Below are positions 57,392 to 61,329 of a stretch of 64,000 nt of DNA, piece after piece (the first letter of the stretch is position 1; each line of letters begins with the position of its first letter). This DNA is from Desulfuromonadales bacterium. GTDB lineage: Bacteria > Desulfobacterota > Desulfuromonadia > Geobacterales > Geobacteraceae. The position numbers were made by a program, and so were the translations under genes. The notes below the pieces were generated by a model. That model searched no databases. It was given only the letters and a program-made list of their open reading frames with translations, and was not told where the DNA came from. The stretch covers positions 47,253-111,252 of the forward strand of contig RHLS01000006.1 in NCBI GenBank assembly GCA_003712145.1. Direction: 5' to 3'.

Positions 57392-57913
57392 ATGAAACCG
57401 CTGAAAGTGCTTATGGCATCACTGGTACTCTTCGCCCTGGCTGCGGCCGCCTCGGGAGAAAAGGGGAAATCGGCCACCATCAAACTCTACTCGGCACAAA
57501 AGAAGGGGTACATCATGAGTGAAAAGGTCATCAAGAGCGACGCCGAATGGCGCAAGCAGCTGACCCCCGAGCAGTACCACATCACCCGCGAGAAGGGAAC
57601 CGAACGGGCCTTCTCGGGCCAGTACGCGAACCATCACGATAAGGGGATCTACCAGTGCGTCTGCTGCGACAACGACCTCTTCAGCTCGGAACACAAGTTC
57701 GAATCGGGGACCGGCTGGCCCAGCTTCTGGCAGCCGATCGCCCCGGAGAACATTACAACCAAGCCCGACCGCAGCCTCTTCATGACCCGGACGGAGGTCC
57801 TCTGCAGCCGCTGCGACGCCCACCTGGGCCATGTCTTTGACGACGGACCGAAGCCGACCGGACTGCGCTATTGCATGAACTCCGCAGCCCTCAAGTTCAG
57901 GAAAGCCGATTGA
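57392..57913 (+). CDS. msrB: Peptide methionine-(R)-sulfoxide reductase, exported
   Basis: [35 protein letters not shown]; signal peptide. Confidence 0.96.
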
Positions 57914-57950: not shown

Positions 57951-59225
57951 ATGAAACGTGTCGTTATCGTCGGCGGCGGCTTCGGCGGACTGAACGCCGC
58001 GAAGGTGCTGGGGAGCAGGCCGGGGGTCGAGGTGACCCTCATCGACCGGAAGAACCACCACCTCTTCCAGCCCCTCCTCTACCAGGTGGCGACGGCGGGG
58101 CTTTCCCCGGCCGACATCGCCGCGCCGATCCGGGTGCTCCTGGCTCGGCACCGCAACGTCCACGTCCACCTGGGGGAGGTACGCGGTGTCGACCTCGCCG
58201 GGCGCACCGTCATGACCAGCACGGACACCTACCCCTACGATTACCTCGTCCTCGCCTGCGGCGCCCAGCACGCCTACTTCGGCCACGAGGAGTGGGAGGA
58301 ATCCGCTCCGGGGCTGAAGACCCTGGAACAGGCAACGGAGATCCGGCGCCGGGTCCTCTCGGCCTTCGAGGAGGCGGAGCTGGAAAAGGACCCCCAGAGG
58401 CAGCGGAAGCTCCTTACCTTCGCCGTCGTCGGCGGGGGAGCAACGGGGGTCGAGCTGGCCGGCGCCATCGGGGAGATGAGCCGGTACACCCTGATCCGGG
58501 ACTTCCGGAGCATCGATCCGACCATGAGCCGGGTGATCCTGATCGAGGCGGGACCGCGGATACTCTCCGCCTTTGCGGAAAAGCTCTCCGCCGACGCTGT
58601 CCGCTACCTGGAAGAGCTCGGCGTCGAGGTGATGACCTCCCGGGCGGTAACGCGGATCGACGCGGAGGGGGTGGAGCTGGGGGGGGAGTTCATCCCGGCT
58701 GCAACGGTGCTCTGGGGAGCCGGGGTGAAGGCATCTTCCCTCGGGACGGAACTTGGGGTGGAAACCGACCGCCAGGGTCGGGTCATCGTGCAACCGGACC
58801 TGAGCGTGCCAGGGTATCCGGAACTCTTCGTCATCGGCGATCAGGCCAACTGTCAAAACGAAAAAGGGGAGCCGCTCCCCGGCCTCGGCCCCGTCGCGCT
58901 TCAGCAGGGGCGTCACGCGGCCCGGAACATCCTTCGTGAACTGGCAGGCAAGCTACGCCGCCCCTTCCGTTACCTCGACAAGGGTCACATGGCAACCATC
59001 GGCAGAAGCCGGGCCATTGGCGAGATCCGCCGGATACGCTTCTCCGGCTTCATCGCCTGGCTCGCCTGGCTCTTCGTCCACATCTATTTCCTGGCGGGCT
59101 TCCGCAACCGCTTCTTCGTCGTCCTCCAGTGGGGATGGTCGTATCTCTCCTTCGGCCGGGGAGCCCGCCTGATCACGAGTCGGGAATGGCGCTCCTATCC
59201 CGGCAGCACAGGAGGCGACAGATGA
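57951..59225 (+). CDS. ndh: Type II NADH:quinone oxidoreductase-like flavoprotein
   Basis: VIVGGGFGG, FQPLLYQVAT, VVGGGATGVE, FVIGD, F.YLDKG.MATIGR. Confidence 0.9.
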   Translation: MKRVVIVGGGFGGLNAAKVLGSRPGVEVTLIDRKNHHLFQPLLYQVATAGLSPADIAAPIRVLLARHRNVHVHLGEVRGVDLAGRTVMTSTDTYPYDYLVLACGAQHAYFGHEEWEESAPGLKTLEQATEIRRRVLSAFEEAELEKDPQRQRKLLTFAVVGGGATGVELAGAIGEMSRYTLIRDFRSIDPTMSRVILIEAGPRILSAFAEKLSADAVRYLEELGVEVMTSRAVTRIDAEGVELGGEFIPAATVLWGAGVKASSLGTELGVETDRQGRVIVQPDLSVPGYPELFVIGDQANCQNEKGEPLPGLGPVALQQGRHAARNILRELAGKLRRPFRYLDKGHMATIGRSRAIGEIRRIRFSGFIAWLAWLFVHIYFLAGFRNRFFVVLQWGWSYLSFGRGARLITSREWRSYPGSTGGDR

Positions 59226-59297
59226 CAGTGTGGTGGAGCGATAAAACATCTATTCATTTTTCTGAATATATGGTACTGTTTTACAGGAGGTGAAACC

Positions 59298-59450
59298 ATG
59301 AATGAACTCTTGATGGTGGGAGGTTTTCTGGCTTTCTGGATTGTCCTCAACAAAGTGGTCCTTCCCCGGCTCGGGGTAGAGACGTGAATGGCTGATGCCT
59401 GTCCTTCCGGGAAGAAGGACAAGAAACAAACCGACAAAAAAGGGGCGTGA
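59298..59450 (+). CDS. Candidate 50-aa membrane-anchored selenoprotein (UxxxxC)
   Basis: AGGAGG RBS; MNELLMVGGFLAFWIVLNKVVLPRLGVET-UGA-MADACPSGKKDKKQTDKKGA-stop; SECIS-like hairpin after the UGA. Confidence 0.6.
59400..59421 (+). promoter_or_regulatory. Putative bacterial SECIS element
   Basis: TGTCCTTC-CGGGAA-GAAGGACA: 8-bp stem starting 12 nt after the UGA (59385-59387), with a G-rich apical loop. Confidence 0.55.
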
Positions 59451-59469
59451 GTTTCACGCCCCTTTTTTG
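59435..59469. terminator. Bidirectional intrinsic terminator
   Basis: CAAAAAAGGGGCGTGA-GTT-TCACGCCCCTTTTTTG between convergent genes. Confidence 0.85.
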
Positions 59470-59491
59470 TGTCATCATGCTTTACACACGG

Positions 59492-59902
59492 TCACCGCGG
59501 ACCCCTTGCCTCCTCAATCACCAGCAGGTACCCATCCGGATCGAAGCACCAGAACTCCTTGACCCCGTAAGGTTTATGCTCCAGCGGGTAGAGAATCTCC
59601 AACTCCTCTTCCAGTATCGCCTCGTAGATCTCCATGATGTCATCCACGGTGACATGGATCGTCATCCCCACCCCTTTGGGGTATTCCTCGAAACGCTCCC
59701 CCAGGATCGGATGGGCGCGCACTACAGCCCCCTCCTCCACAAAGATGATCTCCCAGCCGTCATGCCGCAGGATCAGGTGCTCGGGCGCTCCCCGGGCCGT
59801 CAGCGCCCGCATGACGTCCAGCTCCAGGATGCCGGCATAGAACGCCTCGGTGGTGCTCAGGTCGGCGACCGTCAACTGGATGGAGACGCCAGCCCTACTC
59901 AC
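59492..59902 (-). CDS. VOC-family protein (single domain)
   Basis: FYAGIL, KPYGVKEFWCFDPDGYLL. Confidence 0.85.
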   Translation of the reverse strand: MSRAGVSIQLTVADLSTTEAFYAGILELDVMRALTARGAPEHLILRHDGWEIIFVEEGAVVRAHPILGERFEEYPKGVGMTIHVTVDDIMEIYEAILEEELEILYPLEHKPYGVKEFWCFDPDGYLLVIEEARGPR

Positions 59903-60623
59903 CTCCGAACCACTTCAGACTGTAACGGGAAAGGACACTCAGATAGTTGGTGAAGATCATGAACCCGACGATGACGAGGAATACACCGGTGACGATCTCG
60001 AAAATACGGATGTACTTCTTGAACCGGTTGAAAACGACAAGGAACTGGTGCATGGCCAGGGAAGAGAGAAAAAAAGGAATTGCCAACCCCATGGAGTAGG
60101 TAAAGAGAAGAAGGATGCCTTGGGTGACCGTCTCCTCCGTAGCCGCCACCATGAGAATGGAGGCGAGAATCGGGCCGATGCAGGGGGTCCAGCCGGCGGC
60201 AAAGGCGAGCCCCACGAGGAAGCTTCCCAGGTATCCGGCCGGCTTGCGATGCACGGTGACCCGCTTCTCGCCCAGCAGCAGGTGGATGGGGACAAGCCCC
60301 GAGACATGGATGCCGAAGATGATGATCAGTATCCCTCCCACCTTGCGTATGGCGTTCATGTGCTCATGGAGAAAACCGCCGATGAAGGTCGCCGATGCGC
60401 CGAGGAGCACGAAAACGGTGGTGAATCCCGCGATGAAGAGGAGCGTATGGACAATGGTCTGTTGCCGTACTTTGTGGCTCGGGTGCTCCGCCTGGAGATC
60501 GGAAAAGGAGAGCCCCGTGATGTAGGTGATGAAGGAGGGGATCAGCGGCAGCACGCAGGGAGAGAGAAACGAAAGAAGCCCCGCGACGAACGCGCCGAAA
60601 AAGGTGACGTTGGAAGATTCCAT
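59895..60623 (-). CDS. ccdA: Cytochrome c biogenesis thiol-disulfide transporter CcdA
   Basis: FLSPCVLPLIP and GWTPCIGPIL motifs. Confidence 0.93.
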   Translation of the reverse strand: MESSNVTFFGAFVAGLLSFLSPCVLPLIPSFITYITGLSFSDLQAEHPSHKVRQQTIVHTLLFIAGFTTVFVLLGASATFIGGFLHEHMNAIRKVGGILIIIFGIHVSGLVPIHLLLGEKRVTVHRKPAGYLGSFLVGLAFAAGWTPCIGPILASILMVAATEETVTQGILLLFTYSMGLAIPFFLSSLAMHQFLVVFNRFKKYIRIFEIVTGVFLVIVGFMIFTNYLSVLSRYSLKWFGGE

Positions 60624-60642
60624 GAATGACCTCGGTCTCTTA

Positions 60643-60822
60643 GGGACTCGGAACAAACAAATATACCGTATTACATCTCATCTTCAGGCCATCTTCGCCG
60701 CTCCCTCAATTGCAAAATCCTCGACGTAGCCCTGCTACGCCTGCGGCTTTGCTCAATCAGGAGCGACAAATCTGTCCCAAATCTGAGCGTAAAACTTGGT
60801 ATATCAGTTTATTCCGAGTCCC
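60643..60822. mobile_element. MITE E3, 180 bp, inserted at the tlpA stop codon
   Basis: 25-bp TIR with 22/25 matches (GGGACTCGGAACAAACAAATATACC); TTA direct repeats at 60640-42 and 60823-25; central CGTAGC-cct-GCTACG hairpin. Confidence 0.8.
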
Positions 60823-61325
60823 TTACTTGTTCATCGCCTCGTTAAGGAAGCCGATTACCTCGGGCTGGTCCCACTCCATGGCGCCGACGACTTTCTTGAG
60901 TATAACACCGCTCTTGCTGATGACAAAGGTTTCCGGCACGCCGGTGAGCCCGTAGAGCTTCCCTGCCCGCTTGTCCCCATCCAGAAGCGCCGGGAGCGTG
61001 AACCCGCTCTTGCGGAAGAACTCCTCGACAGCCACCTTCCCCCCATCATCGATGGAGACGCAGAGCATCCGGAACGGCTTGCCGGCCATGGCGGCGTTGA
61101 GACGCATCATGGAGGGAATCTCCTGCCGACAGGGAGGGCACCAGGTGGCCCAGAAGTTCAGGAGCACCACCTGCCCCCTGAGCTCTGAAAGCTTCACCAC
61201 CTCTCCGTTCAGGGTGTTAAGGGTAAAGTCCGGGGCCGGGTTTCCCTCAAGGGCCGGTTTCGTTTCCTTGGAGCAGCCGAGCAGGGCCACGAGCATGAGC
61301 AGCGGCAGCAGGCGGATAATCGTTC

Positions 61326-61329
<4 letters not shown>
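60823..61329 (-). CDS. TlpA/ResA-family thiol-disulfide oxidoreductase lipoprotein
   Basis: Lipobox LLGC; LNFWATWCPPC; VPETF. Confidence 0.92.

Follow-up and report, generated by a model that had tools for sequence, protein, structure and literature searches.

The window, a stretch of 64,000 nucleotides from a Desulfuromonadales bacterium (assembly GCA_003712145.1, contig RHLS01000006.1, positions 47,253 to 111,252), contains on its forward strand a short gene that the annotation cuts down at an in-frame UGA. The AGGAGG ribosome binding site (RBS) read from the sequence is separated by 7 nt from an ATG that opens 29 sense codons; these are followed by a TGA, 20 further open codons and a second TGA (Table 1). 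Reading through the first TGA yields a 50 amino acid product, which consists of a hydrophobic helix, the segment LPRLGVET-U-MADAC and a lysine-rich tail. The strong RBS, the 29-codon hydrophobic open reading frame ending in TGA and the read-through product had all been named in a preliminary description of the locus and are present as described, and the same is true for a perfect 8-bp stem with a CGGGAA loop starting 12 nt after the UGA and for a second stop codon that falls inside a terminator. The 101-nt region folds with an energy of -47 kcal/mol, compared with -24.4 kcal/mol for shuffled sequences (z = -7.5). We consider it likely that positions 59298 to 59450 are a real, monocistronic gene that encodes a selenoprotein of 50 residues, a judgement which also takes in the function proposed for the product below.

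Table 1. Features of the small gene and its surroundings, in window coordinates
Feature	Position	Strand	Details and basis
Promoter-like block	59251-59279	+	-35-like TATTCA at 59251-59256; 17-nt A/T-rich spacer with GAATAT; extended -10 TGgTACTGT at 59271-59279
RBS AGGAGG	59285-59290	+	GGAGG-type sites at the equivalent place in orthologues
Putative selenoprotein CDS, 50 codons, Sec at codon 30	59298-59450	+	Stop codon TGA 59448-59450; orthologues in 52 of 60 relatives
Predicted single TM helix, residues 2-24	59301-59369	+	Hydrophobicity; AlphaFold2 on Cys homologues; ends at L22-P23
UGA, codon 30, very likely read as Sec	59385-59387	+	TGA in relatives, Cys column in homologues, Sec machinery
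Cys35 codon UGU, predicted partner of Sec30 in U-x4-C	59400-59402	+	Opens the putative SECIS stem with its three bases; unchanged throughout alignments A2, A3 and A5
Putative bSECIS hairpin, 8-bp stem, loop CGGGAA	59400-59421	+	Arms 59400-59407 and 59414-59421; tracking of Sec versus Cys forms, shuffles, compensatory changes
Bidirectional intrinsic terminator	59434-59470	.	17-bp G+C-rich stem between A-run and T-run; includes the stop codon of the small gene
Context: convergent glyoxalase-like gene (59492-59902), ccdA/DsbD_TM (59895-60656), TlpA-like redoxin (60823-61329)	59492-61329	-	Pfam matches
Context: upstream NDH-2-type flavoprotein (ndh)	57951-59225	+	Neighbour not conserved

Probable promoter and gene neighbourhood

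In 24 of 30 relatives, the orthologue is likewise preceded by a block of the form TATnCA-N17-TGnTAnnnT. A PWM of this conserved block reaches 50.2 bits at the small gene and at most 24.4 bits elsewhere in the genome; no second site was found in the source genome, and the regulon search gave no regulatory clue. A simple consensus promoter scan did not call the block. From the sequence, we infer that it is the gene's own promoter. At the other end, the terminator probably serves both the small gene and the convergent transcript of the glyoxalase-like, ccdA and tlpA genes.

The preliminary description had placed the gene directly after ndh, which holds for the source genome only; the upstream genes differ in the relatives, where they code for FeoB, Fur, a prepilin peptidase and others. 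A functional grouping with the upstream ndh and msrB genes was rejected, as this synteny is absent in relatives. The hydrophobic leader at the N-terminus of the MsrB protein encoded in the window (57392-57913, forward strand; TIGR00357, 201 bits) suggests an exported methionine-sulfoxide reductase, and the msrB gene is followed by the NDH-2-type gene. The convergent arrangement of the glyoxalase-like, ccdA and TlpA-like redoxin genes is found in 20 of the 30 relatives and at 3 of 18 further loci. Within the order, no conserved operon partner was detected, the only recurrent neighbour being this convergent one. In eight of the 30 relatives (L015, L017, L018, L025, L026, L030, L033 and L035), feoB is located divergently within the upstream 1.5 kb, with a Fur-family gene or an unnamed open reading frame of 160-260 amino acids between feoB and the small gene.

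Orthologues and cysteine-containing homologues

When 60 related genomes were searched in six frames (tblastn-type), 55 strong matches were obtained, with E-values between 1e-5 and 7e-29. They come from 53 genomes, namely the source genome and 52 of the 60 relatives, and only one of the five sampled families is not represented. The gene is present twice in genomes G041 (contigs C70 and C60) and G037 (contigs C206 and C333), and both copies contain the in-frame TGA. Every one of the 55 matches contains exactly one in-frame TGA, always at the same codon and never replaced by TAA or TAG, and the matches extend to residues 44-50. In an alignment of 30 sequences (A2), residues M1, G9, W14, L22, P23, G26, T29, U30, M31, and C35 are invariant, so that conservation continues beyond the TGA, where the codons differ at synonymous third positions (GCT/GCG/GCC, GAT/GAC and TGT/TGC in DNA alignment A1), which is a signature of translation. 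Open reading frame, TGA and hairpin are all found again in 52 of the 60 relatives, which, together with the folding z-score given above, is far beyond what is expected by chance. The small gene was not found in eight of the 60 relatives, two of which are represented by assemblies that are only 70% and 85% complete.

Homologues with either TGA or a cysteine codon at this position, for which the preliminary description had proposed to search, both exist: all strong matches among the relatives have TGA, and cysteine is found in many homologues elsewhere. A profile run against 5.8 billion proteins had 365 matches, most of them the 29-residue open reading frame and either unnamed or listed as "hypothetical protein", while some full-length matches have cysteine at the Sec column, with the motif LPWFGVQT-C-MSGAC. 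At E<=1e-3, HMMER detected 859 matches when 1.84 billion representatives were searched exhaustively. Among the best 150 of these 859 representatives, 82 contain CxxxxC, 39 end at T29 and 16 have tryptophan at the Sec column. The tryptophan entries (P0002, P0003, P0015, P0128 and others) are most likely annotation artefacts, caused by the use of genetic code 4 on the contigs, and not natural tryptophan forms. In named genomes, other phyla included, 77 loci bearing the motif were collected, of which 40 have TGA and 37 a cysteine codon. The family is common in the Planctomycetota (Planctomycetaceae, Isosphaeraceae, Pirellulales, Thermoguttaceae and Candidatus Kuenenia) and also occurs in Syntrophobacteraceae, Desulfomonile, Geopsychrobacter and Verrucomicrobiota. 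A near-identical protein is encoded with TGC in L096 and with TGA in L104 and L112. The cysteine form of L096 (Planctomycetales bacterium 71-10, about 1436-1600) keeps a SECIS-like hairpin of 7 bp whose loop is GUC, and this case looks like a recent replacement of Sec by Cys with a relic SECIS.

Decoding of the UGA codon

The complete set of sel genes, whose presence in the genome had been left as a point to check, is encoded in the source assembly (99.75% complete): the tRNA-Sec gene (selC) scores 75.6 bits at a cut-off of 47, selB 374 bits and selA 625 bits, and selD, which lies outside the window (contig C7:153689-154612; TIGR00476, 362 bits), has one in-frame TGA, so that SelD is itself a selenoprotein in this organism. 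Among the source genome and its 60 relatives, selA was found in 58 of 61 genomes, and neither selA nor the small gene was found in G038 (91% complete) and G040 (100%). The TGA form is absent from selA-negative genomes with one exception, a genome that is 78% complete. Similarly, selA is present in three planctomycete genomes with the TGA form, and the Lacipirellula genome L068, which has only the cysteine form, is without selA. In one relative, G045, selA and the small gene are about 2.8 kb apart (contig C1:524805-529144), a single case which may be a coincidence.

According to the bSECIS model, a G stands first or second in the small apical loop of the hairpin and precedes a G or U, and the loop starts 16-37 nt from the UGA (PMC13188914). 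The hairpin of the small gene, for which a bacterial SECIS geometry had been claimed, fits this published model, its loop being located 23 nt from the U of the UGA. We applied a strict criterion that called for at least 6 contiguous base pairs, a loop of 3-7 nt with G (at position 1 or 2) and then G or U within its first three bases, and a loop start at 16-37 nt. This was passed by 59 of 77 TGA forms (33 of 38 from the relatives, 26 of 39 from other phyla), compared with 3 of 37 cysteine forms and, after synonymous-codon shuffling of the TGA forms, 5.8% of the shuffled sequences; the hairpin thus tracks the TGA forms and not the cysteine forms. Most of the 18 TGA forms that fail on the contiguous stem show bulged hairpins when inspected by eye. 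The loop begins 23-26 nt after the UGA in 61 of 62 cases and at 18 nt in the remaining one, and the loops seen are GGA, GUC, GUU, GGUC, GGC and CGGGAA. The 36 nt past the motif have a mean MFE of -11.35 kcal/mol, compared with -5.58 kcal/mol for synonymous shuffles and -6.57 kcal/mol for the equivalent upstream segment. In the G+C-rich planctomycetes, raw MFE differs weakly between Sec and Cys forms (p=0.056).

In the codon-anchored alignment, 72.9% of cells are paired, despite the shifted register of one genus. Compensatory changes are seen in five of the seven stem pairs, and the covariation score of 0.381, compared with 0.228, was reached by none of 500 shuffles, with slid controls at 0.225 or below. 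The RNAalifold consensus on the same alignment comprises only three pairs, as two registers of the hairpin are present. The peptide past Cys35 varies by lineage (SSGKK, DLGDRG, APGDRG and SPAGRG) in step with the stem, so that this part of the protein seems to be shaped mainly by the RNA, and the purine-rich 3' arm of the SECIS accounts in part for the lysine residues of the tail.

We propose that SelB carrying Sec-tRNA(Sec) would bind the hairpin, which overlaps codons 35-42, and would deliver selenocysteine at the UGA of codon 30, after which translation would stop at the second UGA inside the terminator. One sequencing run labelled RNA-Seq gave a single 201-nt contig over positions 59253-59450, which is probably DNA. 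Judged from the sequences compared here, it is very likely that UGA at codon 30 encodes selenocysteine and that the gene is a selenoprotein gene, so that the selenoprotein reading of the preliminary description is supported. Were the UGA an ordinary stop codon, translation would yield a hydrophobic peptide of 29 residues, and the conservation past the UGA would have to come from an RNA element or from a second, 20-codon open reading frame translated by termination-reinitiation at the adjacent AUG. An AUG does directly abut the UGA, and gene callers and databases list the 29-residue product. However, the cysteine homologues form one continuous open reading frame with the same TCM...C motif, M31 is also kept in these cysteine forms, in which no restart is needed, and in L057 and L061 the TGA is followed by CTG and not by ATG. 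The invariant C35 codon with its synonymous variation, the association of the hairpin with the TGA forms and the use of TGA as the sole stop type at codon 30 likewise speak against termination, which we therefore regard as very unlikely. Bacteria show low-level UGA read-through, which could in principle yield a 50-residue peptide without selenium by insertion of near-cognate tryptophan or cysteine, but the conserved SECIS-type hairpin, the link of the TGA form to selA and the cysteine form in a selA-less genome make this extremely improbable.

Relation to known families and possible function

The small selenoprotein was compared with several resources. In Pfam-A, 30 Sec and 10 Cys forms gave only chance-level matches (E>=0.008, below the cut-offs), and in NCBIfam release 20.0 (June 2026), which includes TsoA (NF045695), no family matched the Sec form or five cysteine homologues at E<=1. 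A look-alike search of the ESM Atlas returned unnamed clusters only. Among the 119 prokaryotic selenoprotein families in Table 1 of a review from May 2026 (PMC13188914), there is no entry with the motif and none with a name or domain that resembles the architecture. In Geobacter sulfurreducens, deep-Sep reported 13 known and no new selenoprotein genes, and the small selenoprotein is not mentioned in earlier Geobacter selenoproteome lists and stop-codon read-through screens. Within Pfam, NCBIfam and the literature compared, it very probably represents an undescribed family, with a decoding mechanism that is standard.

Its predicted layout resembles that of the single-pass ER membrane proteins SELENOK and SELENOS, in which a single membrane helix at the N-terminus is followed by a cytosolic tail that is charged and disordered and contains Sec, with SELENOS forming a Cys-Sec selenenylsulfide. 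This is an analogy of design and not family membership: no Pfam match was found at E<=1, the Sec of the small protein lies at the end of the helix whereas it is C-terminal in SELENOK and SELENOS, and the small gene appears to be decoded via a bacterial SECIS within the open reading frame. The FeoB-associated Cys-rich membrane proteins (PF12669), which have about 50-60 residues and an N-terminal helix followed by a Cys motif, share with the small protein the proximity to feoB in the eight relatives mentioned above, though there in a separate operon; none of 30 Sec and 10 Cys forms matched this family at E<=1, and the motif of the small protein, T-C/U-M-S/A-G/D-x-C, is different. The MerT-like and SO_0444 selenoproteins are multi-pass transporters. 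As bacterial membrane selenoproteins with Sec/Cys pairs close to the membrane, the MerT-like and SO_0444 Cu/Zn efflux proteins are similar to the small protein (PMC13188914; bioRxiv 10.1101/2022.07.06.499078), which is, in contrast, a 50-residue single-pass peptide for which no homology to them was found with Pfam. It is also comparable to TsoA (LULAxC, NF045695), KCU-star/DUF466 and the dual-CXXC small protein, all of which are small, combine a Sec with a downstream Cys and are routinely truncated by annotation (PMC13188914). However, the spacing is U-x4-C here and U-x3-C there, and the names and domains of those entries suggest no membrane anchor.

For 75 natural cysteine homologues, AlphaFold2 predicts a helix at residues 2-24 with a pLDDT of about 91, and low-confidence coil for the rest, the motif region included. 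The N-terminal tail has about 3.5 residues and is slightly acidic (mean K+R 0.58, D+E 0.86), whereas the C-terminal flank is net positive (K+R 3.5, D+E 2.1). By the positive-inside rule, this charge bias suggests a single-pass helix with N-out/C-in topology, which would place U30 and C35 of the T-U-M-x-x-x-C motif right at the cytoplasmic face of the membrane.

The gene neighbourhoods of the homologues point to thiol or reactive-sulfur stress, with soft-metal handling as the main alternative. At the 77 loci collected across phyla, a Lactamase_B-rhodanese fusion of the persulfide-dioxygenase type is encoded immediately upstream in 14 cases and TauE immediately downstream in nine, and a sulfur-trafficking gene is found within 4.5 kb at 29 loci. 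Also near homologues are genes for ArsR (11 of the 77 loci), ECF sigma factors (11), zf-HC2 anti-sigma factors (7) and thioredoxin (10), as well as for a YgaP-type membrane rhodanese, a methyltransferase-DsrE fusion and a 398-residue Pyr_redox_2 protein. Efflux genes are represented by CusB/HlyD-type membrane-fusion proteins at 15 of the 77 loci, RND pumps at five, and MacB and ABC proteins at five and four, respectively. We tentatively propose that the protein acts in thiol or reactive-sulfur homeostasis as a membrane-tethered selenol/thiol pair, which might undergo selenenylsulfide cycling or serve as a sulfane-sulfur carrier. More speculatively, one might imagine that the Sec/Cys-x4-Cys peptide takes up sulfane sulfur (or selenium) at the cytoplasmic face of the membrane and relays it among membrane rhodanese/SQR-type enzymes, persulfide dioxygenase and exporters, and could in this way be an unrecognised part of sulfide and persulfide handling, but such a role is doubtful.

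Alternatively, the protein might be a membrane peptide for soft metals or metalloids (Cu, Hg, Cd, As, or selenium), in which T-U/C-M-x-x-x-C chelates the ion and hands it over to efflux. The motif brings together Sec or Cys, Met and Cys as in metal sites, homologues adjoin genes for CusB/HlyD-type, RND, MacB/ABC and ArsR-family proteins, in L042 the genes for an OEP, a CusB/CzcB-like protein and an ACR_tran pump follow directly downstream, and the MerT-like and SO_0444 Cu/Zn efflux proteins are known bacterial membrane selenoproteins (PMC13188914). Nevertheless, the tightest operon links are those to the persulfide dioxygenase-rhodanese (14 loci) and TauE (9 loci), the HMA, MerT and MerF families are unmatched, and no efflux genes lie beside the small gene in the window, so that we regard metal binding as rather unlikely. 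As a further alternative, the protein could assist a membrane transporter of the LysE superfamily as an accessory subunit, the partner being TauE in planctomycetes and CcdA in the order, and G9 and W14 of the helix would be used for docking; TauE and DsbD/CcdA presumably belong to one superfamily. The invariant residues within the helix would agree with this, as would the start of tauE 2 nt past the small gene in L043, the nine loci with TauE immediately downstream and the nearby convergent ccdA at 23 of 48 loci of the order. On the other hand, ccdA is convergent and not co-transcribed, neither TauE nor ccdA is found at most loci, and no TauE/SafE protein (PF01925) was detected in the whole source genome (99.75% complete), while 13 of 14 control genomes have one; a subunit role thus appears quite unlikely. 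An obligate partnership with TauE was rejected, as the source genome has no TauE. Complex prediction for the natural cysteine homologue P0004 and its adjacent TauE gave a score of 0.00 and poor folds, which speak neither for nor against an interaction.

Inferences on selenium dependence and redox biology draw on selenoproteomes, from which the small gene appears to be missing, although it is present in most genomes of an intensively studied metal-reducing order and in many Planctomycetota. Selenoproteins of micro-protein size evade gene callers and Cys/Sec homology pipelines, and the cysteine homologues of the small protein are short, unnamed and without a Pfam family. With 50 codons, one helix and one Sec, the gene offers a minimal and genetically tractable system for the constraints that a SECIS places on coding, for the replacement of Sec by Cys and for selenium chemistry at the membrane surface. 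If the proposed relay of sulfane sulfur is true, the protein would be a prokaryotic counterpart in design of SELENOK and SELENOS and among the smallest selenoproteins known, and if the operon link to persulfide dioxygenase and TauE is functional, it would be a new player in reactive-sulfur detoxification.
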